Made by a program: the position numbers and the translations under genes. Under the pieces are notes generated by a model. It was not told where the DNA came from. It did not search any database and saw nothing but the letters and a program-made list of their open reading frames with translations. Source: Anaerolineae bacterium (lineage in GTDB: Bacteria > Chloroflexota > Anaerolineae > Fen-1058). Taken from it: a DNA stretch of 64,000 nt. The stretch is taken from assembly GCA_035693785.1 (NCBI GenBank), contig DASSFZ010000212.1, forward strand, positions 4,647-68,646, read 5' to 3'. Positions 193-18,834 of the stretch are shown piece by piece. The first letter of the stretch is position 1. The number at the start of each line of letters is the position of its first letter.

Positions 193-1149
193 TCAGGCCT
201 CGATTCGCATACCCGTCAGGTTGATGAACGCATCTTCCAGCGTCGGCCCCTGCACCGTCACGGCGTTGGCCGTCACACCGTGGTCGTGCAGATAGTTCAA
301 CACATAGGGCATCTTGCCCACCGCATCGTCGAGATACAGCCGGGCGATACGCTGATGGTAATTGCCCACAATGACGTACTTCTCGATCTCGCCGGCGCGC
401 ACCAGGGGAATCAGCATGGCGTCGGTCAGGTTGGGCGCGTGAACTTCCAGACTGCTCTTGCCGCTCACCTGCGACCTGATCTCGTGTGGCGCACCTTCGG
501 CCACTTTGCGGCCGCGATGCAGAATCGCCAGCCGATCGCACAGGCGATCGGCCTCTTCCATATAGTGCGTGGTGAGGATCACCGTGCAGCCGCGCGCTTT
601 CATTTCGCCGACCATGTCCCACACACTACGCCGAGAGGCCGGGTCCAGGCCGGCGGTTGGCTCGTCCAGGAAGACGAACTGAGGCGAGAGCATCATCACG
701 CGAGCCAGATCGAGCTTGCGCTTCATGCCGCCGGAGAACGAATCAACCAGGTGCCGTTCCTTGCCGTCCAGGTTGGCCCAGCGGAACGCTTCTCGTAGGC
801 GCTGTGCGCGCTCGGCGCCGCGCAGGCCGTGGATCTTGGCGTAGAAATCGAGGTTGTCATACGCCGTCAACATGCAGTCCAGGCAGGCATTCTGCGCGAC
901 GACGCCGATGCGCTGGCGCACCTGGGCGGGCTGCTTGCGCACGTCGTAACCGCCCACACTGGCCGTGCCGGACGAAGGTCGCAAGATGGTTGTCAAGATG
1001 CGCACTGCCGTCGTCTTGCCCGCGCCGTTGGGACCCAGCAGTCCAAAAATCTCGCCGGCCGCCACGTCCAGATCGAGCTCGGCCAACGCCAGGACGTTGC
1101 CGGCGTAGCGCTTGGTCAACTTGTGCGTACGTATTCCGTCGCTCATCAT
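193..1149 (-). CDS. ABC transporter ATP-binding protein (ABC-2/DrrA type, no peptidase or TM domain)
   Basis: Walker A GPNGAGKTT, signature FSGGMKRKL, Walker B FVFLDEPTAGLD. ATGATGA start/stop overlap with the upstream ligase gene; the second ATG (1146) is an equally possible start. Confidence 0.93.
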   Translation of the reverse strand: MMSDGIRTHKLTKRYAGNVLALAELDLDVAAGEIFGLLGPNGAGKTTAVRILTTILRPSSGTASVGGYDVRKQPAQVRQRIGVVAQNACLDCMLTAYDNLDFYAKIHGLRGAERAQRLREAFRWANLDGKERHLVDSFSGGMKRKLDLARVMMLSPQFVFLDEPTAGLDPASRRSVWDMVGEMKARGCTVILTTHYMEEADRLCDRLAILHRGRKVAEGAPHEIRSQVSGKSSLEVHAPNLTDAMLIPLVRAGEIEKYVIVGNYHQRIARLYLDDAVGKMPYVLNYLHDHGVTANAVTVQGPTLEDAFINLTGMRIEA

Positions 1150-2648
1150 CCCTCCACCGGTTGCTCGACCGGCAAAAACCAGCTGCCCGCGCGAATGATC
1201 GGGGACGGGTCGATCAACCGCTCCACTAGGGCTAACAGCGGTTGGTACTCGTCCGGCGCGCGCCCCGACACGGTATCCAGGTACAGGCGCGACTTGAGGG
1301 ACGCGCCGTCCCGAATGGGGATGGCGCCGGGCGGCACGCGAATCGCGGGGAAGAAGAATCGCTGTTTAGCAAAAGCGTGTGTCTCGCGCACTTCCGCCTC
1401 GCTTTTGCCACAGCACGCAGCCAGGATATGTCCGGCCATGCCAGTGTCCACACGCGGCACGTCCGGCGTATCATCTTCCAGGAACGTCACGACGATGCGT
1501 GGAAAGCCGCCATTCAAAGCGTAGTAGACGGGAAAGACGCGCCTGAAACCTTTCAGTTCCTGGGCAATCCATTGCAGGTTGTAAGTGCTGCCATTGATCC
1601 CGATGTAGGGCACTTGGACTTCGTGATCGCGGTGGTGGAAGCGCATAGAGCGTCCAGAGAAGCCACAGGCGCACTCGGCGGCGGGCGAAATTTCGACCAT
1701 GTCGGCGTTCAAGTGCTTGACGATGGGGAACACCGAGTTGGCGCAGGTAATGGCCAGCTCGCCGAAGCCGGTTTTCTCCATGCGGCCATTCTCCGCCTGG
1801 ATGCGGATGTCGCGCCGGCCGATCATACGCTGAAGGTCAAGCCCCTGGTAACACTCGCACGGAAACAGCCTGGTCAGCATCTGCAGCTTGAGGCCGCCCA
1901 ACCGGCCGAGCTGGCTGCTGATGGCCAACTTGAGCATGGTCGCCGGGTCAGCATCCGACAGGTGATACACCTCGCCGATGCCGGCGTGCGAGTAGCCGAA
2001 CAGCCCGCCCTCGGTGCATCCGAACACGCTGCCGTATTGGATGCCCATAGCCTCGATCTTGTGCGCCAGTTCCTGGTTGGGCAGCATCAACACCATCTGG
2101 ATGCCTGCCGCGCGCGGCTCCAGGCCGTGTTCGATCAGGTAGTTGAACCAGATGCCCGGCGAGTTATCCACGATGACATTGGGGCGTTCGCGTTCGATCA
2201 GATCCAAAACGTACGGCGCGTCGGAGAGCCTGTCGCGCGACACACCGACCAGGACCGAGCCAAAAGCCTTGGCACGTTCTTCTTCGTCAGGATTTACACA
2301 AAAGAGAAATCGGGGGCTGCCTTTGATCTGGCTGATAAAATTGAGGAAGATGCTCTGACACAGGAAAAACCATTCGGCTCTGAGCCAGGGAAAAGTGATG
2401 GGGCGATTAGTTGTGCCAGAAGTGTGTCGATACTCGATCTGCGTGTCGGGATAGGCAACCGGCAAGTAGTAGGGTTGGCCGGTTTCTTCCTCGTAGCGGA
2501 TGATGTCGCTTTTGGTGAGAAACGGAATGTCTTGCACGCCGGCCCGCTCCACGTCCACAGCAGCATTGTCGTACAGCCAGCGGTAGAACGGTTTCTCTTG
2601 GTAAGCCTGGCGCGCCAGCGCCAGAATGAATTCGTCACCGTCGTTCAT
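1146..2648 (-). CDS. PaaK / coenzyme F390 synthetase / CapK-like adenylate-forming enzyme (copy 1)
   Basis: N-terminal KPFYRWLYDNAAVDVERAGVQDIPFLTKSDI resembles the PaaK-type motif. ANL nucleotide loop is HTSGTTNRPITFPW. Start moved from 2696 to ATG 2648 (GGAGAA 7 nt upstream). Paralog of 4481-6010. Confidence 0.8.
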   Translation of the reverse strand: MNDGDEFILALARQAYQEKPFYRWLYDNAAVDVERAGVQDIPFLTKSDIIRYEEETGQPYYLPVAYPDTQIEYRHTSGTTNRPITFPWLRAEWFFLCQSIFLNFISQIKGSPRFLFCVNPDEEERAKAFGSVLVGVSRDRLSDAPYVLDLIERERPNVIVDNSPGIWFNYLIEHGLEPRAAGIQMVLMLPNQELAHKIEAMGIQYGSVFGCTEGGLFGYSHAGIGEVYHLSDADPATMLKLAISSQLGRLGGLKLQMLTRLFPCECYQGLDLQRMIGRRDIRIQAENGRMEKTGFGELAITCANSVFPIVKHLNADMVEISPAAECACGFSGRSMRFHHRDHEVQVPYIGINGSTYNLQWIAQELKGFRRVFPVYYALNGGFPRIVVTFLEDDTPDVPRVDTGMAGHILAACCGKSEAEVRETHAFAKQRFFFPAIRVPPGAIPIRDGASLKSRLYLDTVSGRAPDEYQPLLALVERLIDPSPIIRAGSWFLPVEQPVEG

Positions 2649-2706: not shown

Positions 2707-4101
2707 TCACAGGCAGGCGGGCTGCGTCGGCGCGGACACTTCCGTCGTTTGCTGCAACTGCAGGTATACAGGCACCAGTTGGCAGTCGAACGACGAGGTC
2801 GCCCTGAGTTGTCCTTGTTCGTAGTACGCCTGCGCCGGGCAGCGGCTGCAATACTTCTGGTAAGCGGGGCACGTCCGGCATTGGTCGGGATCCGCGAACC
2901 AGCGTTCTTCGCGCATTTGGCATAGCGCGGGCGATTGTCGCCAGATGTCGGCGAAACTCTCCCGCTCCAAGTCGCCCACTTCGATCATCAGTCGTTGACA
3001 CGGCGTCACGCGCCCGTTGGGCGTGATGGCATACTTGGTCCGAGCCGCACCACAGTATAAGTTAGGGAAGGGCCGGTACCAACCTCGCGACATCAGGTTT
3101 CGAATCTGGTCGAGCGACAGTCGATCGTTCAGCGTGTCGGTCGCGCCATTGGTGCGGGCGTATACGGCAATCGACAGGATAGGCTGAGACAGTCCCCAGG
3201 TCGCCGATAATCGCGCGAAATTGTCCACATCGTCGAAATTACGGCGAGTGACCACCATCCCCGGAATGACCTTGACGCCATGCTCCCGAAGCAGTGCGAC
3301 GCCGTGGCAGCTGCGTTCAAATGCGCCGTTCCGCCCTGCCAGACGATCGTGAACGTCCGGGCTGCCGCCGTGAAAGGAGACGGCGACGCTTTCGAGAGCC
3401 AGCCGGCCAAGGCGCTCGGCCAGCTCCGGGGTGATCAGCGTGCCGTTCGTCACAACCGATGTGACAAACCCACGCTGCACGGCGTATTCGAGAATCAACA
3501 TGAAGTCGGGGTGCGCCGTCGGTTCGCCGCCGCTCAGGCGGATGCACAGCGTGCCCGCCTCGGCTATTTGATCCAGGATGTCTCGCCAGTGGCTGAAGTC
3601 CAGCGCGCGCCCGCGCTGTCCGGCGTCGTAGCAGTAATAGCACTTCAGATTGCAGGCATGGGTCAGCGTCAGAGTGGCCACCAGTGGGACGCACTTCTCA
3701 TCAGCAGCACCGTAAAAGCGGGCGACCTGCGCAGGTACGGGCAAATTGGAGCGTCGATTCTGACGTGAGAAAGCGGGCGTCGTGCAACCCTCCAGTGTCA
3801 CGAGTCCGCTCTGGTGGAGTGCATGCACAAACCGAGCCACACTGTCCGTGACGGCGGCCAAGTCGGCATCGTAGTGCCGCGCCACGGCGCGCGCCATCTC
3901 CTCGCCTGTTCGGGTGCCGTCAGCCAACTGCCAGATATATGTTCCGACTCGATCCATACGGTGTTGGATGGTCGCACCTTCACGCAGGCTGATGATGAAC
4001 GTGTCGTCGCCGACGGTTCGCGAGCGCGCGGCCTCGTGGCGACTGATCCGGCGTTTCAATTCGTTCGCTGTGGGCTGTTCTGCACGACCGTTGCTGCCCA
4101 T
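2707..4101 (-). CDS. Radical SAM/SPASM peptide maturase with N-terminal PqqD/RRE-like domain (rSAM-1)
   Basis: THACNLKCYYCY (CxxxCxxC). C-terminal SPASM cysteines are CGAARTKYAITPNGRVTPCQ ... CRTCPAYQKYCSRCP. N-terminal FIISLREGATIQHRMDRVGTYIWQLADGTRTGEEMARAVARHY is PqqD-like. Start moved to ATG 4101 (AAGGAG 7 nt upstream). Confidence 0.9.
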   Translation of the reverse strand: MGSNGRAEQPTANELKRRISRHEAARSRTVGDDTFIISLREGATIQHRMDRVGTYIWQLADGTRTGEEMARAVARHYDADLAAVTDSVARFVHALHQSGLVTLEGCTTPAFSRQNRRSNLPVPAQVARFYGAADEKCVPLVATLTLTHACNLKCYYCYDAGQRGRALDFSHWRDILDQIAEAGTLCIRLSGGEPTAHPDFMLILEYAVQRGFVTSVVTNGTLITPELAERLGRLALESVAVSFHGGSPDVHDRLAGRNGAFERSCHGVALLREHGVKVIPGMVVTRRNFDDVDNFARLSATWGLSQPILSIAVYARTNGATDTLNDRLSLDQIRNLMSRGWYRPFPNLYCGAARTKYAITPNGRVTPCQRLMIEVGDLERESFADIWRQSPALCQMREERWFADPDQCRTCPAYQKYCSRCPAQAYYEQGQLRATSSFDCQLVPVYLQLQQTTEVSAPTQPACL

Positions 4102-4307
4102 CCGTACACTCCTTCGTAATCCCGATGGAGAGTGTCGCACTGTCCGGCAGTCGCTAACGAGTGCCTGCCACTAACCGAGACCGCTCAGTCAATCGTGACG
4201 TCCGTGTTGGCCGCAAGGGCCGTGACGCATGCACAGGCAACACTCTCCTCGACAGTCAGGGGAGACAATCCAGCCCTGGCTATGCTCGCTGGCTCGTCAG
4301 TGACGGA

Positions 4308-4388
4308 CTAGCAAGCGGCGGCGCACTCCTTCAGAGCTTCCGCTTCCTCGCCAACATCGAGTGTGATCAGCTCAGGCTCGGCGTACAT
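4308..4388 (-). CDS. Putative RiPP precursor peptide A, 26 aa: MYAEPELITLDVGEEAEALKECAAAC
   Basis: Hand-translated; too short for the ORF track. ATG 4388..4386 is preceded by GGAGG (GGAGGTAAGCAC-ATG). An in-frame TAG six codons upstream fixes the start. Stop is TAG at 4310..4308. It lies upstream of rSAM-1 (about 200 nt before its start) on the same strand. Confidence 0.65.
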   Translation of the reverse strand: MYAEPELITLDVGEEAEALKECAAAC

Positions 4389-4480
4389 GTGCTTACCTCC
4401 TCTCTAGTAGGATGTGAGATCGACTCCCCGGCCGGAGGAATCGCGAAACCGCTCGATGCGTACACTCGCCGGCATTGCCG

Positions 4481-6010
4481 TCAGGCCGGCGTTGGCTGAG
4501 AAACCTCAACGGGCAAGAACCAGCTTCCCGACCGGATGATGGCGGCGCGGTCGACAAGCTGGTCGATCAACGCCAGCACAGGTCGATACTCGTCGGGCAC
4601 GTATCCGGACACCGCATCCAGGTACAGGCGAGATTTGAGCGAATGTTGGTCTCGCAGGGGTATCGTCCCGACCGGAATGCGAACGGCCGGGAAAAATGGC
4701 AAGAAGTTCCTTCTCGATGAGATGAGGCGCATCGTCTCTGAATTGATGCCGGTTGCCGCCGTCATAATGCGCTCAGCCAGGTCGAGATCCAGGCAGGCTG
4801 CCGTCGCGAGTTCGTCTTCAACGAGCGTGACGACTATCCGAACCGTCGGGTCCGGTGCGATATGAATCGGGAAGACGCGCCGAAAGCCCTTCAGCCCGAG
4901 CGCGATGCCTTCCAGGCTGACGTTCATGCCGCCGCCCAGATAAGGAATCTGGACATTATGGTCGCGGCACTCGAACCGCATCGACTGCCCCACGAAGCCG
5001 CAGTCACACTTAGCCTCAGGATGAATCTCGACCCGATCGCTGTTTAAGTACTTGATGAAGGGGAATGCCGAATTCGCGCAAGTGATGACCAACTCGCCTG
5101 CACCGGCAGTGCTCAGTTCCCCATCCACCCGGCGCACTCGAATATCGCGCCGGCCGAACATGGCCTGCAGATCCATACCCTGATAGCAGTCGCAAGGGAA
5201 CAGCCGGCTGAACACCTGTAGCCGGATACCGCCTAACAGCGTTGGAGAGTCGCTGGCGGAACGGATCGGCTCTGCATCGGACAGGTGGTACACATCGCCC
5301 AGGCCGGCGTGCGCATAGCCGAAGAACCCGGCTTCCATACAGCCAAACGCGCTGACGTACTTCAGGCCCAAGGACTCCACCTTCTGGGCCAGTTCGGCGC
5401 TGGGATATGCACAGACCATTTGGATGCCGGCCCGGCACGGATCTAGGCCGTGGTCGAGGAGATAGTTAAACCACAGGCCCGGCGAATTATCGAGAAAGAT
5501 ATTGGGCCGATGCCTGGCGATGAGGTCTAAGACGTAGGGCGCGTCGGCCATGCGATCGTGCGGCACATTCACCAGCACCGACTGGAAGGCTCGCATCTCT
5601 TCCAGTTGATTGGGATTGACGGCGTTGAGGAAACGCGGGCGACCTTTGATTTGCTCGATGAAGTTCAACAGCAAGCTGTTGTAGAGGAACGACCACTCGG
5701 ACTTCAGCCAGGGTATCACCAGAGGCTGGCAGGTTGTGCCGGAGGTACGCAGATATTCCAAGCTGGAATCTGGATAGCCCAGCGGCAGATAATAGGGCTG
5801 CCCCGTCTCTTCCTCGTAGTGGAAGAAGTCCTTCTTGGTGATGAAGGGCAATCGTCGCACGTCCGCGTGTTCTACGTCCACGCTTGCGTTATCATAAAAC
5901 CAGCGGTAAAAGGGCTTTTCCTGATAAGCCTCGCGAGCGAGTGAGAGGATAAACTCGTCTCGCTGCCTCAGCCGCCCAACCGCGTTTTTCTCCTCGTGTC
6001 GCTTATCCAT
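4481..6010 (-). CDS. PaaK / coenzyme F390 synthetase / CapK-like adenylate-forming enzyme (copy 2)
   Basis: KPFYRWFYDNASVDVEHADVRRLPFITKKDF and RTSGTTCQPLVIPW. Clearly paralogous to 1146-2648 along its whole length. Start moved to ATG 6010 (GGAAGG upstream). Confidence 0.8.
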   Translation of the reverse strand: MDKRHEEKNAVGRLRQRDEFILSLAREAYQEKPFYRWFYDNASVDVEHADVRRLPFITKKDFFHYEEETGQPYYLPLGYPDSSLEYLRTSGTTCQPLVIPWLKSEWSFLYNSLLLNFIEQIKGRPRFLNAVNPNQLEEMRAFQSVLVNVPHDRMADAPYVLDLIARHRPNIFLDNSPGLWFNYLLDHGLDPCRAGIQMVCAYPSAELAQKVESLGLKYVSAFGCMEAGFFGYAHAGLGDVYHLSDAEPIRSASDSPTLLGGIRLQVFSRLFPCDCYQGMDLQAMFGRRDIRVRRVDGELSTAGAGELVITCANSAFPFIKYLNSDRVEIHPEAKCDCGFVGQSMRFECRDHNVQIPYLGGGMNVSLEGIALGLKGFRRVFPIHIAPDPTVRIVVTLVEDELATAACLDLDLAERIMTAATGINSETMRLISSRRNFLPFFPAVRIPVGTIPLRDQHSLKSRLYLDAVSGYVPDEYRPVLALIDQLVDRAAIIRSGSWFLPVEVSQPTPA

Positions 6011-6072: not shown

Positions 6073-6630
6073 TCACGCCAAGGCGGTGTCAGCCATGACG
6101 AGCAGGTCTTCTCCGACGTCGATAGCGTCGTGTCGCTGGTCGGCGAACTGCGCCAATCGCCCCGTTAGGAGCGCCAGGCCGGACACGATCGATTCGCGTT
6201 CGAGGGCTGATAAGCCTGACAGCAGCCCCTGGAAAAACACGTTTTGCAACGTCCGAATTTGCGTGCTGCGCGCTTCGCCGCTCTCTGACAGCTTCAGACA
6301 AACGACACGCCGATCCCGTTCGTCGCACATCCGCTCTGTCAGGTTGGCTTTGACAAGCTTATCCGCGACCCGCGTCACCGTGCTGGCCGCCAACTTGGTA
6401 TAGTCGCTGATTTCGGTCATCGTCATCGGGCCGTTGACTTGCAGACCCATTAAGATGTAGCTTTGCAAAATGGTGATGTCCAGGGCGCCTAGCATCTCGC
6501 GGCTTAATACATAAAACAGGCGTATCAACTGCGGCAGATCGCGTTGCAGCCTGTTTGCCTCCGATAGATTCACGCTGGCTGGGTCGCAACACAACCGCTC
6601 GACGTACTCTTCCATCTGACGCCTCTTCAC
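6073..6630 (-). CDS. MarR family transcriptional regulator
   Basis: Winged-helix core LQSYILMGLQVNGPMTMTEISDYTKLAASTVTRVADKLVKANLTERMCDERDRRVVCLKLSESG is typical of MarR. An alternative start exists at MEEYV (6615). Confidence 0.85.
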   Translation of the reverse strand: MKRRQMEEYVERLCCDPASVNLSEANRLQRDLPQLIRLFYVLSREMLGALDITILQSYILMGLQVNGPMTMTEISDYTKLAASTVTRVADKLVKANLTERMCDERDRRVVCLKLSESGEARSTQIRTLQNVFFQGLLSGLSALERESIVSGLALLTGRLAQFADQRHDAIDVGEDLLVMADTALA

Positions 6631-6661: not shown

Positions 6662-8077
6662 TTAGGCCAGAGCGGCTACCATCTGATCACGCTGATCGAT
6701 GTAGGCAATCGCATGCGCCAATTGGCAGGCTTCTTGACAACGGCCGTCAAACGTCGTGCTCTCCAGATACGACAGGCCCACGCAATCGACGCAGTAAGAT
6801 CGCACACGGCATTCGCGACAGCCCGCCCGGTCTTTCGTCTCCAAATAAGAGCGGAAGCGAGCGATCCACTCCTGGCGCTCGGGGGAACGCAAAACCGTCT
6901 CGAAAGAATGGTGAGCCAGGTTGCCCAATTCGATCGTCGATAACATCTCGCATGGGTGCAACGAGCCATCCGGCCCTATGCGAAATCGGCTGACCCCCGC
7001 CGTGCATCGGCTGCGCCGCAGCGTGATGCCCAGTTGTGGCGTCATCGCCCTGAATTGTTCGCGAGTCGCCCGGTATTGCGTTGGAGCGGCGTTGCGCTGA
7101 ATCGTGGGATATACGAGCGGGCTGACCTGAAACCGAATGCCCAGTGAGTCCAGCCGGCGCTTGATCTCCAACAACTGATCGGCATTGTCGCTCATCAGTG
7201 TGCTGGTGACCGTGACCGGAACGCCGTGGGTATGGAGCGCCACAATCCCCTTCCACGTCCTCTTGAAGGAACGTGCGTTCCGCACAAAACGGTTGTGGTA
7301 GGCTTCTAAGCCGTATATGGGCACCCGCACCTCGACCAGCGAAACAGAGGCGAGCAATTCGACTAGTTCTTCGTCAAGCCGCGTACCGTTAGTCAGCAGT
7401 TCCACGGCGAAGTGCAGTTCATGAGCACGCTGCAGTATCTTGGTGAAGGCACGGTGCAGCGTCGGCTCGCCGCCAGTCAGAATCAACTCCAACACGCCGG
7501 CTTGCGCCATCTCGTCCAGGAGTTCTAGCTGGCGCGAAGTGGAGAGCGCCGACGTGCCCGGCACGCCTACGCCGAACCCCAAGTAACAATGCTGGCAGTG
7601 ATGATTGCAGTGATGCGTCAACTCAAAGAAGACCTTGAGCGGCAGCACCTGGGCGCTGGCCTTTTCAAACATAGTATCCAACACATCGGCTTCGGACACT
7701 TCCGGCTCGCCTCCGTTCGACACGGGTGATCTGAGCGAGAGGCTCGTCGCGCCATTCGGGGATTCTTCGGTGAACAAGCCCGCCGCCACAGCCGACACCA
7801 GAAACTCCTCCAGACCGGAGTCGAATTCATCGGGCGATACATCGAAGCGGGCGAGTATCTCGTCTCTGAATGCGTCGAAGGCCGCGCGCCGTTCGACGGA
7901 CGAGAACACTTCGACGCCAAGCCCGCCGACAATGGCGAATCGGTTCTCAACCTTTGCGCCTGTTCGCCAGCAGAACACTTCATCACCGACGAAGCGATAG
8001 GCCAGGTTGTCCGCGATCTTCAGGTGAGACCATGCCTGCCCGACTTTCCCGTCAGCACCAGAATCGTGATCGTTCAC
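6662..8077 (-). CDS. Radical SAM/SPASM peptide maturase with N-terminal PqqD/RRE-like domain (rSAM-2)
   Basis: THHCNHHCQHCY (CxxxCxxC). SPASM cysteines are CTAGVSRFRIGPDGSLHPCE ... CRECRVRSYCVDC. GTG start at 8077 with AGGAGA upstream. Confidence 0.9.
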   Translation of the reverse strand: MNDHDSGADGKVGQAWSHLKIADNLAYRFVGDEVFCWRTGAKVENRFAIVGGLGVEVFSSVERRAAFDAFRDEILARFDVSPDEFDSGLEEFLVSAVAAGLFTEESPNGATSLSLRSPVSNGGEPEVSEADVLDTMFEKASAQVLPLKVFFELTHHCNHHCQHCYLGFGVGVPGTSALSTSRQLELLDEMAQAGVLELILTGGEPTLHRAFTKILQRAHELHFAVELLTNGTRLDEELVELLASVSLVEVRVPIYGLEAYHNRFVRNARSFKRTWKGIVALHTHGVPVTVTSTLMSDNADQLLEIKRRLDSLGIRFQVSPLVYPTIQRNAAPTQYRATREQFRAMTPQLGITLRRSRCTAGVSRFRIGPDGSLHPCEMLSTIELGNLAHHSFETVLRSPERQEWIARFRSYLETKDRAGCRECRVRSYCVDCVGLSYLESTTFDGRCQEACQLAHAIAYIDQRDQMVAALA

Positions 8078-8261: not shown

Positions 8262-8330
8262 TTAGCAGCCTGAGCCGCACGCAACGGCGCCACTGGTGCG
8301 GCGCGTCTTTCCAACGACGAGCTTGAACAT
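8262..8330 (-). CDS. Putative RiPP precursor peptide B, 22 aa: MFKLVVGKTRRTSGAVACGSGC (34 aa if started at ATG 8366)
   Basis: Hand-translated. ATG 8330..8328 is preceded by AAGGAGG (AAGGAGGTATAAGC-ATG). Stop is TAA at 8264..8262. An in-frame upstream ATG at 8366 would give MFRILNFQGGISMFKLVV... but has no SD. The ORF lies between rSAM-3 and rSAM-2 on the same strand. Confidence 0.6.
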   Translation of the reverse strand: MFKLVVGKTRRTSGAVACGSGC

Positions 8331-8555: not shown

Positions 8556-9884
8556 TCACGCTGGCTGTCGTTCAAGCGCGTACGTTTCCTGCTTCGCCTC
8601 GGCGCACAAGCGCGCGACGCGGCAGGCCTCGCTCGAAGGGCTATTCGGATTGCCGTCTTCCATCTCGGCCAACGCCGGGCAGCGACGGCAGTAATCCGAC
8701 CATGCGCAAGCGTGGCAGGCTTCGGGCGTGCAGAAAAACTCGGACGCCCGGAATGCTTCCAACTCGGCCCCGCGCCAGATATCTTCAAACGCCTGCTCAC
8801 GCAGGTTCCCAAAGGAACGCCGCACCAGCTCGCAGGGATAAACATCACCGAATGGTGAGATGCGCGCTTTAGTGGTGGCGGCTGTGCATACGCTTCGCCG
8901 GCGCACCAGCTTGCCCTGCCGCGCCAGATCCAGCACCCAGTCATCCGAAATACGATAATCCAGTGGCGCGAGTGAGCCGTTGACGTTTGGCAGCAGGTGA
9001 ACATTCAGAGCAAAGCCCACCTGCCATTGCTCGCACAGCCGGCGCAGGGCATCTTCCTCACGGACGTTGTGATACGTGGCATTGAAGATCACGTAAACGT
9101 TTGCGCCGGCTTGAGCCAGATACTCGATACCCCGGCAGGCCCGGCGAAACGATCCATTCACAGCGGTGAATGCATCGTGCGTGGACGGGCGCGCGCCGTG
9201 CAGGCTGACCTGCACCGTACACCAGCGCGCCAGCAGGTCTGCGTACGCCGGTGTGATCAACGTGGCATTCGTCAAAACCAGAATGGCAAACCGGCGCTCG
9301 TGGGCGAGCCGGATGAGCTGCTCCAGGTCGCGACGCGCGAAGGGTTCGCCGCCCGTGAAGCACAAGAACAGCGTCCCCGCTTCAGCCAGTTGATCAAGAA
9401 TCGATTGAACTTCTGATGTATTCAAAACCCGGTGGTTGTCTTTGGCCGTGTAGCAATACACGCAATCCAGATTACAGGCGTAGGTCGTCTCAAAATCAAC
9501 ACGAAATGGAACCCGCTGTCGCTTAACCTCGGTGATGACGAGCTCCGGCTGCCAACGCGTCGCTTCGCGGAATGACCGGCGCACGCCGCCAGTTTCGCCA
9601 TCGGCCGTGACAATCGAGCGGTCGTATAGCGAACGGACGAACTTGCACACATCCTGCGCGACCTGCGCGAGAGGCACGGCAAACTGGTCGCTGAGTGAAG
9701 CGGCGATTTCGCGCAACGGTGTCTGGCGCGTCAAATGCCCCCAAATCAACTCGCCGACGCCGGTCAGTTTGCTCGTTTCGCCAGTGCGCAGCGCGTAGAC
9801 ATAGACGCTGTCCCCCACTTTGCGGTAAGCGACATCATCCCTGAGCGCGATTTGTCTATCCAGCCAATTCAGATCGGCTTCCAT
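8556..9884 (-). CDS. Radical SAM/SPASM peptide maturase with N-terminal PqqD/RRE-like domain (rSAM-3)
   Basis: TYACNLDCVYCY (CxxxCxxC). SPASM cysteines are CTAATTKARISPFGDVYPCE ... CHACAWSDYCRRCP. PqqD-like segment is VYVYALRTGETSKLTGVGELIWGHLTRQTPLREIAASL. Start moved from 10139 to ATG 9884 (MEADLNWL); the exact start is uncertain. Confidence 0.88.
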   Translation of the reverse strand: MEADLNWLDRQIALRDDVAYRKVGDSVYVYALRTGETSKLTGVGELIWGHLTRQTPLREIAASLSDQFAVPLAQVAQDVCKFVRSLYDRSIVTADGETGGVRRSFREATRWQPELVITEVKRQRVPFRVDFETTYACNLDCVYCYTAKDNHRVLNTSEVQSILDQLAEAGTLFLCFTGGEPFARRDLEQLIRLAHERRFAILVLTNATLITPAYADLLARWCTVQVSLHGARPSTHDAFTAVNGSFRRACRGIEYLAQAGANVYVIFNATYHNVREEDALRRLCEQWQVGFALNVHLLPNVNGSLAPLDYRISDDWVLDLARQGKLVRRRSVCTAATTKARISPFGDVYPCELVRRSFGNLREQAFEDIWRGAELEAFRASEFFCTPEACHACAWSDYCRRCPALAEMEDGNPNSPSSEACRVARLCAEAKQETYALERQPA

Positions 9885-9979
9885 GCTCACCCCATCTCTC
9901 AACTGGCGCCAACGACGAGTGCCCTCCGCCCCGCGCGCCTTCACCGGCTGACTCGGCAGGCCTGATCGCGAATGGATGC

Positions 9980-10034
9980 TTGCTACTAGCAACACTTGTA
10001 TCTGTATAGTATTGGGAAACCGCACGGCGCACAA
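9980..10034 (-). promoter_or_regulatory. Candidate sigma70-like promoter plus palindromic operator upstream of rSAM-3
   Basis: Minus strand: TTGTGC (10034..10029), 17 nt spacer, TACTAT (10011..10006). About 13 nt further downstream lies the perfect palindrome TTGCTAgTAGCAA (9992..9980). The stretch is locally AT-rich. The hexamers match the consensus only 3/6 and 4/6. Confidence 0.25.
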
Positions 10035-10125
10035 TGGCGCGCGGTCGAGTTCCGACCTAGACCCCAGTCTAGTTCGCGCCTCAAGCGATGTGCCGGCCAC
10101 TGGGCGTAAGCCGAACCACGACAGG

Positions 10126-10975: not shown

Positions 10976-12406
10976 TCAAGCGCGAGCGACCGACCTTTTA
11001 GTCCGCGCCGCTTTGACGACGGCCACTGCTCGCTTGATCGGCGCGCCGACGGCTGCGTGTCGCCAGGCAGGCCCTGTCGTCCCCAGGCGTGTGCCCAGGC
11101 GCATGATAGCCTTGGCGATGGCCGAATCGCGTTGACGCGGGGCGAGCCAGGTCGGTTCCCGCCGCGCGTGATTCAAGACTCGCTCCATCATCTTCGGCGC
11201 AAGCTCTGGTGACAAATAGAAACGCGGTTCCAGCAGATCGTCGTCCGAGAACGCCCCCCCTTCCTGTTGGAGCACCTCGGCCAGGCCGGTGGCCGGAAAG
11301 ATGCGCAGTCCGAATGAATACGTCACGGCCGTGGCGCGCATCTTGCCAATGGCTGTCAACGTCTCCTCGATCGTTGTCGCCGTCTCGCCTAGCCCGCCGA
11401 AGATCAGATGGAAGAGGAACGGCAACCTGGCCTGGCAGCAGCCCTCACTGCAGGCGGCTACGTCGTCCAGCGTGAACCCCTTGCGCAACCGATGCAGCAT
11501 CCCATCGTTTGCCGCGTCGATGCCCAGCTCGACGCCGCTGCAGCCGGCGCGCCTCATCAGGCAGGCCAGCTCGGGCGACAGCGAGGACGGGTTGGCTCCG
11601 CACACCCAGTGCAGGTCGAGCCTGCGCCGCAGTATCTCCTCGCAGATCGCCGCAGCGTGATCCGGCGGATACGTGAACACCGCATCCACGAAATGGATCT
11701 TCTTCACGCCGGCGCGCGCCAATCGCTCCAACTCTTCGCCTACGTTCTGCGGAGAGCGCAGCCGCACGTCTCGCCCCTCGATCACGGGGTAGTTGCAGTA
11801 CAGGCACCGAAACGGGCAACCCCGCTTGGTCTGGACGTTAACCGCGCTGCCTGCCAGCTCGTACGTCCGGGAGACTGCCCGATCGCGCGTGGGAATGGGC
11901 AAAGCATCGAGATCGCGCACACGAGCCGGTGGCTGCCTGTCGCCTGGCGAGTCGCGGTTCGTCACAACGCCTGGGACACGATGCGGGTCACCGCACGCCA
12001 GCCACAACGGGAACGCCTCTTCGCCTTCGCCGACAATCCCGATTTGCAGGTCCAAGAAGCGCAGTATGGCCTGAGGAAAGATGGAGAAGCCCGACCCGCC
12101 GGCCACGATGGGCGCATGGAACGCCTGACGGCAGGCATCGACGATAGGGCGTATCGCAGGCAGGTAACGCACGGGCGCATCGTAAGTCAGGTTGTCGATG
12201 TTTCGGATGGACAGGCCGATGCAATCCGGCTTGAACGTCTGCACGGCATCGCGCGCGACCTGCGCCGCATCCTTTGCAAAGCACAGGTCCAGCAGGCGCG
12301 TCTCGATGCCCCGCTGTCGCAGGCTGGCATCCACATAGGCGAGTCCCAGCGGCAGGACCGGATAGGGCGACTGCTCCCGATTGGTGTAGATGAGCAAGAC
12401 TCTCAT
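10976..12406 (-). CDS. B12-binding domain radical SAM enzyme (class B type)
   Basis: N-terminal MRVLLIYTNREQSPYPVLPLGLAYVDASLRQRGIETRLLDL is B12-binding-domain-like. It is followed by TKRGCPFRCLYCNYP (CxxxCxxC). The ATG at 12406 overlaps the upstream KS stop (ATGA). Confidence 0.85.
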   Translation of the reverse strand: MRVLLIYTNREQSPYPVLPLGLAYVDASLRQRGIETRLLDLCFAKDAAQVARDAVQTFKPDCIGLSIRNIDNLTYDAPVRYLPAIRPIVDACRQAFHAPIVAGGSGFSIFPQAILRFLDLQIGIVGEGEEAFPLWLACGDPHRVPGVVTNRDSPGDRQPPARVRDLDALPIPTRDRAVSRTYELAGSAVNVQTKRGCPFRCLYCNYPVIEGRDVRLRSPQNVGEELERLARAGVKKIHFVDAVFTYPPDHAAAICEEILRRRLDLHWVCGANPSSLSPELACLMRRAGCSGVELGIDAANDGMLHRLRKGFTLDDVAACSEGCCQARLPFLFHLIFGGLGETATTIEETLTAIGKMRATAVTYSFGLRIFPATGLAEVLQQEGGAFSDDDLLEPRFYLSPELAPKMMERVLNHARREPTWLAPRQRDSAIAKAIMRLGTRLGTTGPAWRHAAVGAPIKRAVAVVKAARTKRSVARA

Positions 12407-13674
12407 GCCACTGGCTTCCTGTACACGACGGCATTGTTGCGCCCGAAAAACGAGATCGTGTTTTGCAGGATCGTCCGAATGGGAATTGCCCGGCCCACGT
12501 TCGGCACGTAATCCAGATCGCATTCGGGATCAGGCTCGCGATAGTTGATCGTCGGGGGCACGAAACCGTGCTCCATCACTAACGCGCACGTCACCGCCTG
12601 CATGATCCCGGCCGCGCCCTGCGTATGCCCGAGCATCGACTTGATCGCGCTGACCGGCACGCGACACGCCGCTTCACCAAACACGTTCTTGATCGTCTTG
12701 GTCTCGTTGACGTCGTTCAACTGTGTACTGGTACCGTGCGCGCATACGTAATCCACCTCGTCAGGCTGTACGCCCGCCTCGTGCAACGCCAGGCGCATGG
12801 CCCGCGCCGACTGTTCGCTCGTCGGGCTGGGAGCCGTCATGTGATAAGCATCCGCCGACGCGCCGTAGCCGGCCACCTCCGCGTAGATATGCGCGCCGCG
12901 CCGCCGGGCATGCTCCCACTCTTCCAGCAGGATCACGCCTGCGCCCTCGCCCATCACGAATCCGTTGCGCGTACGGTCGAAGGGACGCGACGCGCGTTCC
13001 GGCTCATCGTTGTGCTGCGACAGCACGTTGAGCATCGCGTAACTGTAGAAGATGTAGGGCTGGATCGGCGCCTCTGCGCCGCCTGCGATCATCAAGTCGG
13101 CCTCGCCATACTGGATCTGGCGAAAAGCGTAGCCCACTGCATCGGTGGACGACGCGCACGCTGCGGCGGTGACCGTGCTATCACCCTGCAGGCCGAACAT
13201 CCCGTTCACGCTCAGCGCCACCTGTCCCAAGAAAGTGGTCAAGACGTGACGCGCGCAGCGCTGCGCCTCCGCTTCGTCGCCACGGGCGGCTGCGGCGAAC
13301 AAGTCGTCCAAAAGAGGCAGACGCGCTTCCAAATCCCCCGCCGCCGAACCGATGCTCACCCCAGCACGCGTCCGATCTTCGGCGTCGAGCTGCACATCGG
13401 CATCGGCCAGCGCCTGCTGGGTCGCAACCAGCATGAATTGATTCGCGCGATCGGCTTGATCGGTCCAACGCGCAACGGCGGCGGCATCCAGATAGCGGCG
13501 CACATCGAAGACCTTCACTTCGGCAGCCATCGTGGAGCGGTAGCCGCTGGCATCGAACGCCTGGATCGGCCCTGCACCGGAGCGACCCGCCTTGAGGTTC
13601 TCCCAGAAGTCGCGTTTGCCGATCCCAATCGGCGACACGATCCCCACGCCGGTCAGCGCCACACGTCTAGCCAT
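12403..13674 (-). CDS. Beta-ketoacyl-ACP synthase (KS, FabF-like, full Cys-His-His triad)
   Basis: Active-site AAACASSTDAVGY, CAHGTSTQLND and LGHTQGAAG. The start overlaps the upstream CLF-like gene by 8 nt. Confidence 0.92.
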   Translation of the reverse strand: MARRVALTGVGIVSPIGIGKRDFWENLKAGRSGAGPIQAFDASGYRSTMAAEVKVFDVRRYLDAAAVARWTDQADRANQFMLVATQQALADADVQLDAEDRTRAGVSIGSAAGDLEARLPLLDDLFAAAARGDEAEAQRCARHVLTTFLGQVALSVNGMFGLQGDSTVTAAACASSTDAVGYAFRQIQYGEADLMIAGGAEAPIQPYIFYSYAMLNVLSQHNDEPERASRPFDRTRNGFVMGEGAGVILLEEWEHARRRGAHIYAEVAGYGASADAYHMTAPSPTSEQSARAMRLALHEAGVQPDEVDYVCAHGTSTQLNDVNETKTIKNVFGEAACRVPVSAIKSMLGHTQGAAGIMQAVTCALVMEHGFVPPTINYREPDPECDLDYVPNVGRAIPIRTILQNTISFFGRNNAVVYRKPVA

Positions 13675-14968
13675 CGGCAGGATCTCCTTCGCGCCAGCGC
13701 TTGTAGACGAGCGCGCCGCACTTGCCCAGGACAGATAGGCTGTTGTGTAGGATCACGGCGGGCGAGGCTGCCCGCGCCTGGTTGGGCACGTAATCCAGGT
13801 CGCACATCGGATCCGGCTGGCTGTAATTGATTGTCGGCGGCAGCAAGCCGCGCCCCAGCGCCAGACAGCAGCTCGCCGCTTGCAGCGCGCCGTCGGCGCC
13901 CAACGTATACCCGAATATGGGCTTGATGGAACTGACCGGCACGTCGTACGCGTGTTCGCCCAGAGCCTGCTTGATGGCCAGCGTCTCCCGGATGTCGCCC
14001 GCTTGAGTGCCGATGCCGTGCGCGGCGATGAACTCGACGCAGTCAGGAGCCAGGGCCGCATCCGCCAGCGCCATGCGCATGGCGAGGCTGGTATCGCCTG
14101 GCGCGTCGTGCGCCGGCAGGTCGTTGGCGGGCAGGCACGTCGCGGCATAGCCGGCCAGTTCGGCGTAGACGTGCGCGCCGCGCCGCAGCGCATGCTGCAT
14201 CTCTTCCAAGACGAGAATGGCCGCACCCTCGCCGAGCACAAACCCGTCCCGCCCGGCATCGAACGGCCGGCAGGCGCGCTCTGGCTGATCGTTGCGGCGC
14301 GACAGCAAGCCGAGGCCGTCGAACAGGATTAGCGACGAATGCAGGATCGGCGCTTCGCTGCCGCCAGCGATCATGACATCGGCCTCGTCGTACTTGATCT
14401 GCCGATACGCATAGCCCAGCGCATCCATGCCGGCGGTCTCGGCGGCGTAGACCGTCACGCCCGGCCCGCGCAACTGAAAATTGACCGTGATGTTGCCGAA
14501 CGACGCGCCGCTGCTGCCGATGATGCACGACAGGGCGTTCATCTTGTGAATGCCGCCTGTCTGGATGCGCTCTATCTCGCCGCGCGCCATACGGATCGGG
14601 CCGGCAAACGTGCCGATGCTCGTGCCTGCGCGTTCGGAGTCGCTCGGGGTGAGGGTGAGATCGGCATCCTCCATCGCCATCTGGGCGGCCGCATACGCAA
14701 AGCCCGACACGCGCTCCATGAAGCGCGCCTGCTTGCGGTCGGTGTAATCGTTGATGGAGAAGCCATCCACGCTGGCTGCGATGTGCACGCGCTGGCCCGG
14801 CCGAGGCTCAAGCGTGCGGATCGGCCCGGCGCACGAGCGGCCTTGACGGATGGCCTGCCAGAAGGCTTCTTTCCCGATGCCGGCCGGCGACACGACGCCA
14901 ATGCCGGTCACCACCACGCGGCGGCGCGCGTTTTGTCGTGTCGAGGCGTCATGTGTCAGCATAACCAT
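13667..14968 (-). CDS. Ketosynthase-like protein lacking the active-site Cys (chain-length-factor-like)
   Basis: KS fold throughout. The Cys position reads YAAETAGMDALGY and the second His motif reads FGYTLGADG. Start moved to ATG 14968 (MVMLTHDA...). Confidence 0.82.
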   Translation of the reverse strand: MVMLTHDASTRQNARRRVVVTGIGVVSPAGIGKEAFWQAIRQGRSCAGPIRTLEPRPGQRVHIAASVDGFSINDYTDRKQARFMERVSGFAYAAAQMAMEDADLTLTPSDSERAGTSIGTFAGPIRMARGEIERIQTGGIHKMNALSCIIGSSGASFGNITVNFQLRGPGVTVYAAETAGMDALGYAYRQIKYDEADVMIAGGSEAPILHSSLILFDGLGLLSRRNDQPERACRPFDAGRDGFVLGEGAAILVLEEMQHALRRGAHVYAELAGYAATCLPANDLPAHDAPGDTSLAMRMALADAALAPDCVEFIAAHGIGTQAGDIRETLAIKQALGEHAYDVPVSSIKPIFGYTLGADGALQAASCCLALGRGLLPPTINYSQPDPMCDLDYVPNQARAASPAVILHNSLSVLGKCGALVYKRWREGDPADG

Positions 14969-15399
14969 CCGATTTCCCCGTAGTGCAGATTCGCCGTCAT
15001 CAACAGCGCCAGCACCCGCTTCTGAGGATTGGGAGAGCGCCATAGTTCTTTGCGAAACTCGAGTTCGCGCTGGTGAATGCGGGTCTCGCTCATCAGCGGC
15101 CGCGAGCAACACAAGGGAGCCAGCAGGTCGAGATACTCGACGAGCTGGCCGACGGTGGAGATCTCGGCGGCGCGGGCCTCCAGCGTTTCCTCCCACGATG
15201 GATCGACGTACCGAAACACGTCGGCCTCGAACTCGCGCTCGATGGCGATTATGAGTTCCACGATGTCCAGCGAATCGGCGTCGAGGTCTTCGCGAAAACG
15301 GGCCTGGAGCGTCACGTCGTCCGGCGCGACATTGAGCGTATGCACAATGACATTTCGCATTCGCTCAAACGTGTTAAGCGAGTTCTTGCGTTCGCTCAT
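14956..15399 (-). CDS. Acyl carrier protein with ~55-60 aa C-terminal extension
   Basis: LDADSLDIVELIIAIEREF contains the DSL phosphopantetheine-attachment motif. Start ATG 15399 has GGAGAGAGG upstream. The ORF continues to 14956, giving 147 aa. Confidence 0.78.
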   Translation of the reverse strand: MSERKNSLNTFERMRNVIVHTLNVAPDDVTLQARFREDLDADSLDIVELIIAIEREFEADVFRYVDPSWEETLEARAAEISTVGQLVEYLDLLAPLCCSRPLMSETRIHQRELEFRKELWRSPNPQKRVLALLMTANLHYGEIGWLC

Positions 15400-15886
15400 C
15401 GGAACCTCTCTCCGCGCGCAGCCGCTCACCGGTGTGGTCGCCGGGCGACGCAATGACCACCTCGCCCTCGGCGACTGTCCCGCCGCCGGTGGTGATGCGA
15501 CCTTGAATCACCATCACGCCCAGGCAGGCTCGAATCACCGTCGCTTCGATGCGCAGCGAGTCGCCGGGCCGCGCCGGTTGGCGAAAGCGAAAGTTGCGAA
15601 TGCGCGCCAGGAAACCCAGGTAGGCAGTAGCCTCGTCGTCGTTCGACCCTGCCCGCAAGGCAATCCCGCCGACCTGCGCCACCATTTCGACCAGCAGAAC
15701 ACCCGGCACAATGGGATGATCGGGGAAGTGCCCGGCGAAGTACGGCTCGTTGATGCTAACGTTCTTGATCGCCACCGCGCGCCGTCCCGGCTCAACTTCG
15801 AGGACGCGATCGACGAACAGGAAGGGATAGCGGTGGGGAAGCAGCCGAAAGATATCCTGAATGTCCACGGCGTCCACCTCGCTCAC
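15374..15886 (-). CDS. fabZ: 3-hydroxyacyl-ACP dehydratase
   Basis: [14 protein letters not shown] and [28 protein letters not shown] (canonical FabZ His and Glu motifs). The GTG start overlaps the FabG stop (GTGA). Confidence 0.9.
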   Translation of the reverse strand: [170 protein letters not shown]

Positions 15887-16626
15887 ATGGCCAGACCGCC
15901 GTCCACTACCAGCACATGGCCGGTGATGTACTCGGCGGCCGGGCTGCTCAGGAAGACGACGGCTTTGGCCACGTCTTCAGGCCGGCCCAGGCGCTGGAGT
16001 GGAATCGCCTGCACAAACTTCTCCTGAACGTGAGCCGGAATCGCTTTCACCATCCGCGTGTCGATGAACCCCGGCGCGACGACGTTGACGGTGATGCGGT
16101 AGGTCGCCAGCTCGCGGGCGAGCGCTTTGCTCAGACCGATCAGGCCGGCTTTGGCCGCGCTGTAGTTGGCCTGACCGGCCTGCCCCATGATCCCGCTGAT
16201 CGAGGCGACGTTGATGATGCGACCAGCCCGCTTTTTCATCATGGTCTTGGCGACGGCACGCGCGCAGTGAAACGCGCCCTTGAGGTTGATGTCGAGGACG
16301 TGGTCCCAGTGCTCGTCGCTCATCATCAGCAGCAGCCGATCGGCGGTAACCCCGGCGTTGTTCACCAGCACGTCGACACGGCCCCAGCGGTCGAGCACGG
16401 TCTTGACCATCGACCTGACCGCACCAGCGTCCGCCACGTCGGCGCACACGGCGACGCCCTCACCGCCGGCAGCGGCGACGTCGGAGACGAGCCGATCCGC
16501 GCTCGCCGCATCGCACACGTAGTTCACGGCCACGCTGGCGCCTTCTTGGGCGAGCGCCAAACAGATAGCGCGTCCGATCTCGCCGGTTCCGCCGGTGACC
16601 AACGCCACGCAGCCCGATAGCCTCAT
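15883..16626 (-). CDS. fabG: 3-oxoacyl-ACP reductase
   Basis: ALVTGGTGEIGRAICLALA and NYSAAKAGLIGLSKALA. Start moved to ATG 16626, which overlaps the FabI stop by 1 nt. Confidence 0.88.
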   Translation of the reverse strand: MRLSGCVALVTGGTGEIGRAICLALAQEGASVAVNYVCDAASADRLVSDVAAAGGEGVAVCADVADAGAVRSMVKTVLDRWGRVDVLVNNAGVTADRLLLMMSDEHWDHVLDINLKGAFHCARAVAKTMMKKRAGRIINVASISGIMGQAGQANYSAAKAGLIGLSKALARELATYRITVNVVAPGFIDTRMVKAIPAHVQEKFVQAIPLQRLGRPEDVAKAVVFLSSPAAEYITGHVLVVDGGLAM

Positions 16627-17417
16627 CACGCTTCCTTCACCGGCTCCGGCAGGCGAATGCCCAGGATGTTGAAGCCGCCGTCGACATACACCACTTCGCC
16701 GGTCACGGCGCCGGACAGATCGCTGCACAGCCACACGGCCGTCTTGCCCACGTCCTCGATGGTGACGCGCCGCCGCAGCGGGGCGATGTCCTCGAAAGTG
16801 CGAAACAGCGTCTTGAAACCGGTCACGCCGGCCGAAGCCAGCGTGCGAATCGGCCCGGGGCTGATGGCGTTGACGCGTATATGGCGCGGCCCCAAGTCGC
16901 AGGCCAGATAGCGCACGCTCGCTTCGAGCGCGGCCTTGGCCACACCCATCACGTTGTAGTGCGGCATCACTTGCCGGCTGCCGTGGAAGGTGAGGGTGAG
17001 GACGCTGCCGCCCGGGTTCATCAACGGCGCGGCGGCCCGCACCAGAGCCGTGAGCGAATAGGCGCTGATGTCGAGCGCCAAGTGAAAACCCTCGCGCGAG
17101 GTGTCGAGGTACGGCCGGTTGAGATCGTCGCGATTGGCGAAGGCGACGCTATGCACCAGGAAGTCCAGCGTCCCGAACGCCTGACGCGCTTTCTCAAACA
17201 GCGTCGCGATGTCCGCGTCGCGCGTCACGTCGCACGGCTCGACGAACTCGGCCCGCAGGCTGCGCGCCAGCGGCCGCACGCGTCGCTCCAGCGCGGGCAC
17301 GGCGTAACTGAAGCCGAGTGTCGCGCCCTCCGCGTGCAGAGCCTGGGCGATGCCCCAGGCAATGCTGTGATCGTTTGCCACGCCGAAGATCAGGCCTTGC
17401 TTGCCGCTGAGTAACAC
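16626..17417 (-). CDS. fabI: Enoyl-ACP reductase
   Basis: [36 protein letters not shown] and [18 protein letters not shown] are typical FabI motifs. GTG start with GAGGAGG upstream. Confidence 0.88.
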
Positions 17418-17563
17418 AGCGCCTCCTCGCTCTCACAGTGCATCCGACATGTCATTCTGAGGCACGAAGCGCCGAAGAATCTCTGTTTTCGCGGCCCGAC
17501 ATGAGACACTTCGCTCGCTGCGCCCGCCCAGAGTGACGGCTGCACGGAGTCTTAAGACACACT

Positions 17564-18805: not shown

Positions 18806-18834
18806 GTCATCTCACCTTCTTTCTCAAACGCAAC

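Follow-up and report, generated by a model that had tools for sequence, protein, structure and literature searches.

The question raised by this locus is which substrate would be served by a radical S-adenosylmethionine (radical-SAM) enzyme, rSAM-1, whose protein, deposited from a metagenome-assembled genome of Anaerolineae, carries the public name 'PqqD family peptide modification chaperone'. The rSAM-1 gene lies in a stretch of 64,000 nucleotides from contig DASSFZ010000212.1 (hereafter the window), and a short open reading frame (ORF), P1, was found 206 nucleotides upstream of it on the same minus strand. Comparison with related loci indicates that P1 is a genuine small gene, conserved in evolution and under purifying selection. 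It is probably translated, and would then give the precursor peptide of a very rare, undescribed system of the RiPP type (peptides made by the ribosome and modified after translation), with a core formed by a second radical-SAM gene (rSAM-3), P1, rSAM-1 and a PaaK-like ligase. The frame and its ribosome-binding site are placed as follows.

4308 to 4388, minus strand: P1, probable precursor-peptide gene, 26 codons (MYAEPELITLDVGEEAEALKECAAAC) plus a TAG stop; orthologs at 477-566 of locus L002 and 3335-3424 of locus L086.
4396 to 4400, minus strand: Shine-Dalgarno sequence GGAGG, 7 nucleotides ahead of the P1 ATG.

The ATG occupies 4388-4386 and the stop codon 4310-4308, immediately 3' of the last Cys codon. 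An in-frame TAG is present at 4406-4404, six codons 5' of the ATG, with no alternative start between the two, and a longer version of the frame is thereby precluded. Of the residues in the peptide, seven are acidic and one is basic, and its two cysteines are Cys22 and Cys26. These observations agree with the sequence-only reading of this locus, which had described a 26-residue ORF upstream of rSAM-1 with a GGAGG 7 nucleotides before its start, an upstream stop in frame, a stop directly after the final Cys and an acidic leader.

Such a frame could be a chance opening in an intergenic spacer, and the translation signals by themselves do not argue otherwise. There are 16 GGAGG-N5-9-ATG sites in the window, two of which open ORFs of 15-60 codons, namely P1 and a second small peptide gene, P2, at 8330. 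Block shuffles of the window yielded 6.2 ± 2.7 small ORFs with GGAGG-N5-9-ATG, and a Shine-Dalgarno sequence followed by a short ORF is therefore not above chance, which counts against a coding function. A chance origin is also favoured by the absence of the peptide from any gene caller's output or database; neither P1 nor P2 was found in a collection of 15 billion proteins. Both frames lie in intergenic gaps of one operon and both end in Cys-X3-Cys-stop. The significance of P1 derives from its conservation across loci rather than from its ribosome-binding site. Orthologous ORFs with conserved ends, and with substitutions concentrated at third codon positions, in independent metagenomes effectively rule out a chance frame, to which only the slightest probability is given.

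Only two loci, both metagenomic (L002 and L086), had enough sequence upstream of an rSAM-1 ortholog for P1 to be looked for; a further relative of rSAM-1, L001, has just 97 nucleotides of upstream sequence. A conserved small ORF had been expected at this position in related loci, as a refutation test set in advance, and both loci carry a homolog, of the form MYTKPEVITVEFAA(A/E)(E/D)DSPKATGCGSSGC, immediately 5' of the rSAM-1 ortholog. In L002 the peptide MYTKPEVITVEFAAAEDSPKATGCGSSGC follows AAAGGAGG; an rSAM-3 ortholog, represented by its 3' end, precedes it, and the rSAM-1 ortholog comes after it. In L086, which was found through a search with rSAM-3, the order is an rSAM-3 ortholog (58% identity), then MYTKPEVITVEFAAEDDSPKATGCGSSGC, then the rSAM-1 ortholog (49%). 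Both P1 orthologs comprise 29 codons and have a Shine-Dalgarno site, the equivalent GGAGG being 8 nucleotides ahead of the ATG, and the rSAM-1 orthologs beside them are 49-50% identical to rSAM-1.

The P1 ORFs of L002 and L086 differ at 14 bases, 13 of which are third codon positions (binomial P = 6e-6), and 11 codon changes are synonymous while 2 are non-synonymous. The DNA identity between these two loci is 84% in the P1 ORF, compared with 69% in the spacer and 70-72% in the flanking enzyme genes. No gene is called at the P1 position in L002, L086 or L003 (the last being another assembly of the window's own locus), which may be due to the shortness of these ORFs (81-90 nucleotides).

All three versions of P1 share the residues M1, Y2, P5, E6, I8, T9 and K20 as well as the Cys pair at the end. 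Two features are thus conserved, an N-terminal Y2-x-x-P5-E-[L/V]-I-T-[L/V] and a C-terminal Cys-X3-4-Cys, the latter taking the form Cys-(Ala/Gly/Ser)3-4-Cys at a free C-terminus. The sequence-only reading had proposed CAAAC as the core, with two thiols and a Glu nearby. The pair of thiols was retained, as Cys-X3-4-Cys, but CAAAC itself was not (the orthologs have CGSSGC), nor was the Glu near the core cysteines.

The same locus was also assembled independently from three public runs (L003, L004 and L005; SRR34438316, SRR25158203 and SRR19317549), with 99.8-100% identity, and its source organism thus recurs in several samples. The strain copies show 22 + 3 variant sites, none inside P1 or P2; the absence of substitutions from these genes in L003 and L005 (99.8-99.9% identical) is uninformative for selection. 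Wider searches did not extend the family. A degenerate DNA pattern of the P1 leader gave only two matches in genome contigs, both due to chance, and profile hidden Markov models of P1 and P2, run on the 96 fetched loci translated in all six frames, found no new members. No comparable peptide was seen in the more distant PqqD-radical-SAM loci L090-L092, and the minimal loci contain no alternative candidate substrate ORF.

If P1 is a precursor, the enzymes beside it should be able to bind and modify a peptide. Two of them share one architecture, consisting of a PqqD-type RiPP recognition element (RRE), a radical-SAM core and a SPASM domain.

2707 to 4101, minus strand: rSAM-1, PqqD-type RRE, radical-SAM core and SPASM domain (Pfam; invariant columns).
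8556 to 9884, minus strand: rSAM-3, PqqD-type RRE, radical-SAM and SPASM domains, first gene of the module (Pfam).

The rSAM-1 protein has 464 residues, and its ATG start agrees with the deposited protein. Pfam matches were obtained for PqqD (residues 46-101, E 1e-10), Radical_SAM (98 bits) and SPASM (43.7 bits), so that the PqqD-like RRE named in the sequence-only reading as the partner domain does precede the radical-SAM/SPASM core. The CxxxCxxC cysteines (C150/C154/C157) and seven C-terminal SPASM cysteines are invariant. An AlphaFold2 model from a 60-sequence alignment (pLDDT, the predicted local distance difference test, 88.7) begins with an N-terminal three-stranded sheet followed by three helices, and its best Foldseek matches in the PDB were SuiB, CteB, SkfB, PqqE and TigE, all of them peptide maturases. 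Relatives of rSAM-1 are few: two among 5.8 billion proteins (L001 and L002, at 55% and 50% identity) and no family members among 185,579 species-representative genomes, while the JGI metagenomes gave only generic SPASM proteins of 21-41% identity. rSAM-3 is 34% identical to rSAM-1, has orthologs at 58-70% identity, and is represented directly upstream of P1 in both L002 and L086. In another locus, L087 (1-620 and 1690-2020), the rSAM-3 ortholog is interrupted around 1705-1860, a sign of decay or rearrangement, and the SDR (short-chain dehydrogenase/reductase) gene upstream of it is an internally deleted remnant.

The leader of P1 resembles sequences that such domains are known to bind. In the pathways of lasso peptides and LPP, recognition elements of the PqqD type bind a [Y/W]xxPx[L/V/I/F/A] motif (PMC13381572), and the same motif stands at the head of the FzmZ scaffold peptides, 21-22 residues long, of the fosfazinomycin pathway (PMC13622209). 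The N-terminal segment of P1 fits this motif in all three versions, with Y2, P5 and L/V7. P1 had earlier been likened to the recognition stretch of PqqA/MftA-type leaders. A conserved segment resembling an RRE-binding motif was indeed present, but it is of the YxxP type, and the likeness to PqqA and MftA was not upheld, as P1 matched no Pfam or NCBIfam model, those for PqqA and MftA included. By analogy with the lasso and LPP leaders, we infer that the P1 leader would bind the PqqD-type RRE.

The second peptide gene, P2, offers a comparison within the same operon.

8262 to 8330, minus strand: P2, second small peptide gene, conserved, MFKLVVGKTRRTSGAVACGSGC (GGAGG 7 nucleotides upstream; ortholog in L087).
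6662 to 8077, minus strand: rSAM-2, radical-SAM/SPASM protein with a divergent N-terminal RRE-like domain (Pfam; L087 ortholog 61%).

P2 is unannotated and lies about 185 nucleotides upstream of rSAM-2. Its ortholog in L087 (MFKLIVGKTRRTSQQVCGSGC, 2206-2271) is directly ahead of the rSAM-2 ortholog (61% identical), and the codon changes between the two P2 versions are synonymous in nine cases and non-synonymous in three. P2 has a C-terminal Cys-X3-Cys like that of P1, but its leader is basic and lacks YxxP. The PqqD match of rSAM-2 is marginal (E 0.11), and its full-length identity to rSAM-1 is 26%. A YxxP leader is paired with a clear PqqD domain and the non-YxxP P2 with a divergent one, as would fit recognition that is specific to the leader.

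The position of P1, 122-206 nucleotides upstream of rSAM-1 in the different loci, would also suit a regulatory upstream ORF, in which stalling at Cys codons and stem-loops in the spacer would tune the expression of rSAM-1 and the ligase, with a peptide that has no function of its own.

4102 to 4307, minus strand: spacer between P1 and rSAM-1, structured, without a U-tract terminator (fold z-score -2.2).

The equivalent spacers of L086, L001 and L002 have fold z-scores of -5.45, -4.62 and -2.57 and form strong stem-loops after the ORF, that of the window being weaker, and two Cys codons do lie near the end of the frame. However, these Cys codons are not in tandem and the hairpins lack U-tracts. 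The amino acids of the N-terminal half are under purifying selection, which attenuator peptides do not need, and the sequence fits an RRE-binding motif beside RRE-bearing enzymes that are otherwise without a substrate in the locus. P2, moreover, carries the same C-terminal motif ahead of a different enzyme. A purely regulatory role is for these reasons considered very unlikely. By analogy, the stem-loops fit a common arrangement in which the ratio of precursor to enzyme transcripts is raised. Scans for consensus terminators and promoters around P1 found none, and Rfam gave nothing relevant on positions 1-24000.

The remaining partner in the proposed core is a PaaK-like ligase, of which the module has two, one on either side of the P1-rSAM-1 pair.

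1146 to 2648, minus strand: ligase-1, divergent PaaK-like adenylate-forming enzyme by prediction, directly downstream of rSAM-1 (family profile; synteny).
4481 to 6010, minus strand: ligase-2, immediately upstream of P1 and 58% identical to its paralog ligase-1.

Neither ligase-1 nor ligase-2 has a Pfam match at E<=0.1, and among 21 members of the family just 4 reach AMP-binding at E<=0.01. The profile built from the 21 members aligned with phenylacetate-CoA (coenzyme A) ligases in the PDB (9s3l, E 3.8e-19; 4r1l, E 3.9e-17, profile positions 12-402) and with the PaaK-like natural-product ligases AjiA1 and 6siw (E 1e-14), and a TSGTT P-loop-like motif and a hinge motif are present. The two proteins are accordingly assigned by profile as divergent PaaK-type adenylate-forming enzymes, because the family profile aligns over nearly the full length of PaaK structures; the single proteins show no Pfam match. 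An AlphaFold2 model from a three-sequence alignment (pLDDT 39.8) was unusable for fold comparison. The clade has 36 relatives at E<=1e-3 among 1.84 billion representative proteins.

The succession of rSAM-1 and ligase is kept in L001. On L093, a contig that shares its sample with L086, a ligase likewise follows the C-terminal portion of an upstream gene, presumably the rSAM-1 ortholog. On an AT-rich archaeal contig (L096, 4767-9287), a distant member of the ligase clade adjoins a B12 radical-SAM gene, and a Cys-rich ORF of 58-81 residues (ending ...KNCSTLCGPVGAVPTACPLPCT) is directly upstream of a nearby radical-SAM/SPASM gene. This single anecdote may be a distant analogue of the association between ligase, SPASM enzyme and Cys-containing peptide.

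Every gene between 193 and about 24000 lies on the minus strand. The order of transcription in the module is a non-coding block, rSAM-3, P2, rSAM-2, a MarR-family regulator, ligase-2, P1, rSAM-1, ligase-1 and an ATP-binding cassette (ABC) ATPase, and comparison of the loci indicates that rSAM-3, P1, rSAM-1 and a PaaK-like ligase are the conserved core. The other components of the module are listed below.

6073 to 6615, minus strand: MarR-family regulator inside the module (Pfam MarR).
193 to 1149, minus strand: ABC-transporter ATPase that opens a series of exporter genes extending past the window start (Pfam ABC_tran).
9960 to 10090, minus strand: conserved non-coding block upstream of rSAM-3, with palindromes CTAGAC-N4-GTCTAG and TTGCTACTAGCAA (four-locus alignment).

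A MarR gene is also found downstream of the rSAM-3 ortholog in L085. In L003, the genes that come after the ABC ATPase encode two ABC-2 permeases, a MacB/FtsX permease and a second ATPase. The non-coding block, of about 110 nucleotides, occurs upstream of every rSAM-3 ortholog (L085 1-230, L086 1796-2003, L087 400-616, L094 580-690). An exact palindrome is at 9980-9992, the palindromes of the block being CTAGAC-N4-GTCTAG and TTGCTAnTAGCAA, and there is a possible TTGTGn-N17-TAnTAT promoter; a scan for consensus promoters upstream of rSAM-3 was negative. From these sequence features, the block would be the operon promoter and MarR operator. A third peptide at 9986-10084 (...PILYRYKCC, resembling a frame in L085) was considered and rejected, since the DNA is conserved block-wise with the palindromes and the frame is broken in L086 and L087; the block was read as a promoter/operator because this reading frame is not conserved. 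In L094, the block is followed by a short remnant of a ligase C-terminus (690-800).

The generic features of an RRE-dependent radical-SAM/SPASM system are thus present, namely a conserved, adjacent precursor ORF on the same strand, CxxxCxxC and SPASM cysteines, and a PqqD-type RRE. In the maturation pathway that we propose, the leader Y-x-x-P-E-[L/V]-I-T-[L/V] would dock as an added beta-strand on the PqqD-type domain of rSAM-1, and probably also on that of rSAM-3, and would thereby place the flexible Cys-(Ala/Gly/Ser)3-4-Cys-COOH tail into the radical-SAM/SPASM active site. One or both of these enzymes would then carry out Cys-directed radical chemistry, which would most likely yield a thioether of the sacti- or ranthi-type inside the tail. 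The PaaK-like ligase would adenylate a carboxylate, either the free C-terminus of the peptide or an acyl partner, for condensation. The product would be exported by the ABC-2 and MacB-type transporters, and the MarR regulator would control the operon through the conserved operator upstream of rSAM-3.

Several points, in addition to the result of the block shuffles, weigh against a modified peptide encoded by P1. The whole case for translation and modification is a comparative one, built from sequences. P1 exists in just three distinct versions, two of which are almost the same, so that its conservation is drawn from few independent lineages. When P1 was fused to rSAM-1 in AlphaFold2, the peptide had a pLDDT of 38-57 and was not docked with confidence. 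None of rSAM-1, rSAM-2 and rSAM-3 exceeded the cutoff of any NCBIfam model, and no curated precursor or maturase family fits; the top scores of rSAM-1 were 143 bits for ScmE (cutoff 400), 132.5 for PqqE (381.35) and 123.5 for MftC (265), and the sacti- and ranthipeptide models gave 87.3 for AlbA (850), 85 for SkfB (300), 104.4 for StsB (625) and 66.1 for PapB (340). The sequences make a Cys-to-Glu ranthionine in P1 unlikely, because the Glu beside the core is not kept in the orthologs, and the possible thioether acceptors in the tail are only Ala, Gly and Ser. Finally, no gene for a protease that would remove the leader is visible in the module.

This last observation would also be expected if P1 were a scaffold or carrier peptide. 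In such a pathway, the ligase would acylate the Cys thiol(s) or activate the C-terminal carboxylate, the radical-SAM enzymes would act on the tethered moiety, and a small molecule or lipid conjugate would be released, as in the pearlin, fosfazinomycin, PQQ (pyrroloquinoline quinone) and mycofactocin pathways. P1 is very short, with YxxP at its N-terminus and its reactive residues at the extreme C-terminus, like the 21-22-residue FzmZ, and the module holds two PaaK-like ligases. PaaK loads an acyl group onto the thiol of CoA, and enzymes of this type pass acyl-adenylates to a thiol. In the window, the module also abuts a fatty-acid-type cluster with ladderane-type B12 radical-SAM and Tes-like radical-SAM genes. 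This neighbour is not obligatory, however, as the module of L086 is preceded by a LacI-type regulator gene and no lipid genes. The exporters and the MarR regulator suit a secreted peptide equally well, and no PEARL (LanB-like) or asparagine-synthetase-like enzyme was found among the neighbours with Pfam and NCBIfam. A scaffold role for P1 is judged unlikely.

A broader version of this idea, in which both P1 and P2 would be carriers, the new PaaK-like clade would load their Cys thiols or carboxylate, and three RRE-guided radical-SAM/SPASM enzymes would build a non-peptide or lipid-linked product, is regarded as distinctly unlikely. If true, it would provide a peptide surrogate for CoA or acyl carrier protein (ACP) in radical lipid or small-molecule chemistry, and a link to the neighbouring ladderane-type B12 radical-SAM/Tes-like lipid cluster would be possible.

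This fatty-acid-type cluster is directly upstream of the peptide module (10976-23951, minus strand). It contains four FabF-like ketosynthases, an ACP and FabZ-, FabG- and FabI-like genes. Its B12 radical-SAM protein scored 344.9 bits against the 360 cutoff of TIGR04072 ('ladderane-type' lipid biosynthesis). A second B12-domain protein is encoded at 20545-22302 and a Tes/TrsS-like radical-SAM protein at 22350-23951 (260-293 bits, below the cutoffs).

With P1 taken as the precursor of a modified peptide, the locus can be described as a candidate for a new RiPP family of uncultured Chloroflexota. Its minimal precursor, of 26-29 residues, starts with a YxxP leader and ends in a Cys-X3-4-Cys tail, and it is accompanied by two or three radical-SAM/SPASM enzymes that bear an RRE and by a PaaK-like ligase. 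The peptide genes, of about 90 nucleotides or less, show how loci of this sort come to be recorded as orphans, with a 'PqqD family peptide modification chaperone' gene that lacks a substrate. The four-gene system would be small enough for direct reconstitution, by which the action of two SPASM enzymes and an adenylating enzyme on a C-terminal di-cysteine tail could be followed.

Among known systems, the sactipeptides and ranthipeptides (CteB/thermocellin, SkfB/SKF, AlbA/subtilosin, PapB/freyrasin) are alike in having a short precursor gene beside an enzyme with RRE, radical-SAM and SPASM domains, a Cys-containing core and SPASM twin auxiliary clusters, and the best matches of rSAM-1, in structure as in sequence, include CteB and SkfB. 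They differ in that rSAM-1 scores only 66-104 bits on their NCBIfam models, against cutoffs of 300-850, and in that the P1 core is just Cys-X3-4-Cys with Ala/Gly/Ser between and has no conserved Asp/Glu/Asn acceptor. The core module here also combines two RRE-bearing radical-SAM enzymes with a PaaK-like ligase, and the thioether is a proposal. SuiB, the streptide enzyme, was the best Foldseek match to rSAM-1 (E 2e-18, TM 0.58-0.65) and has the same RRE-radical-SAM-SPASM layout and a small precursor, but its sequence identity to rSAM-1 is 16-18%, and streptide has a Lys-Trp C-C cross-link, whereas P1 has neither Lys-Trp nor an aromatic residue in its core.

PqqE was the best sequence match to rSAM-1 among solved structures (E 1e-25). 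The PQQ and mycofactocin systems share with this locus a PqqD-type domain and peptides of 20-30 residues modified at or near the C-terminus. In contrast, P1 has neither Glu-X3-Tyr nor a C-terminal Gly-Val-Tyr, rSAM-1 is below the PqqE and MftC cutoffs, the RRE is fused rather than separate, and the exporters are ill-suited to an intracellular cofactor. The lasso, LPP and FzmZ leaders are comparable to P1 in Y2-x-x-P5-E-[L/V]7 and in a PqqD-type partner (lasso B1, LppB or the FzmA RRE), and FzmZ is also comparable in length (21-22 residues, against 26-29 for P1) and in an N-terminal YxxP (positions 2-5 in P1), and scaffold peptides of this kind have their chemistry at the extreme C-terminus, where P1 has its conserved Cys. 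However, no lasso cyclase, leader peptidase, LPP kinase or asparagine-synthetase-like enzyme was seen among the minus-strand genes examined (193-23951) or in the related loci, where the modifying enzymes are radical-SAM/SPASM proteins. The C-terminal tail of P1 has only 5-6 residues and no acidic residue, while a lasso core needs Asp/Glu at position 7-9.

The ligases resemble PaaK, NatL2 and AjiA1 in a family profile that aligns near full-length to PaaK and in the TSGTT and hinge motifs, but their genomic partner is a radical-SAM peptide system and the proteins are without a Pfam match. Literature searches for radical-SAM RiPPs together with PaaK or F390-synthetase-type ligases found no paper combining them. 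Genome mining regularly yields new radical-SAM RiPP families, and RRE-dependent radical-SAM/SPASM peptide maturation is, as a kind, already well known. The family of P1/P2 peptides and enzymes with a PaaK-like ligase is in neither the curated libraries nor the searched literature, and it is in this sense a solid new lead for specialists, although no surprise in kind.

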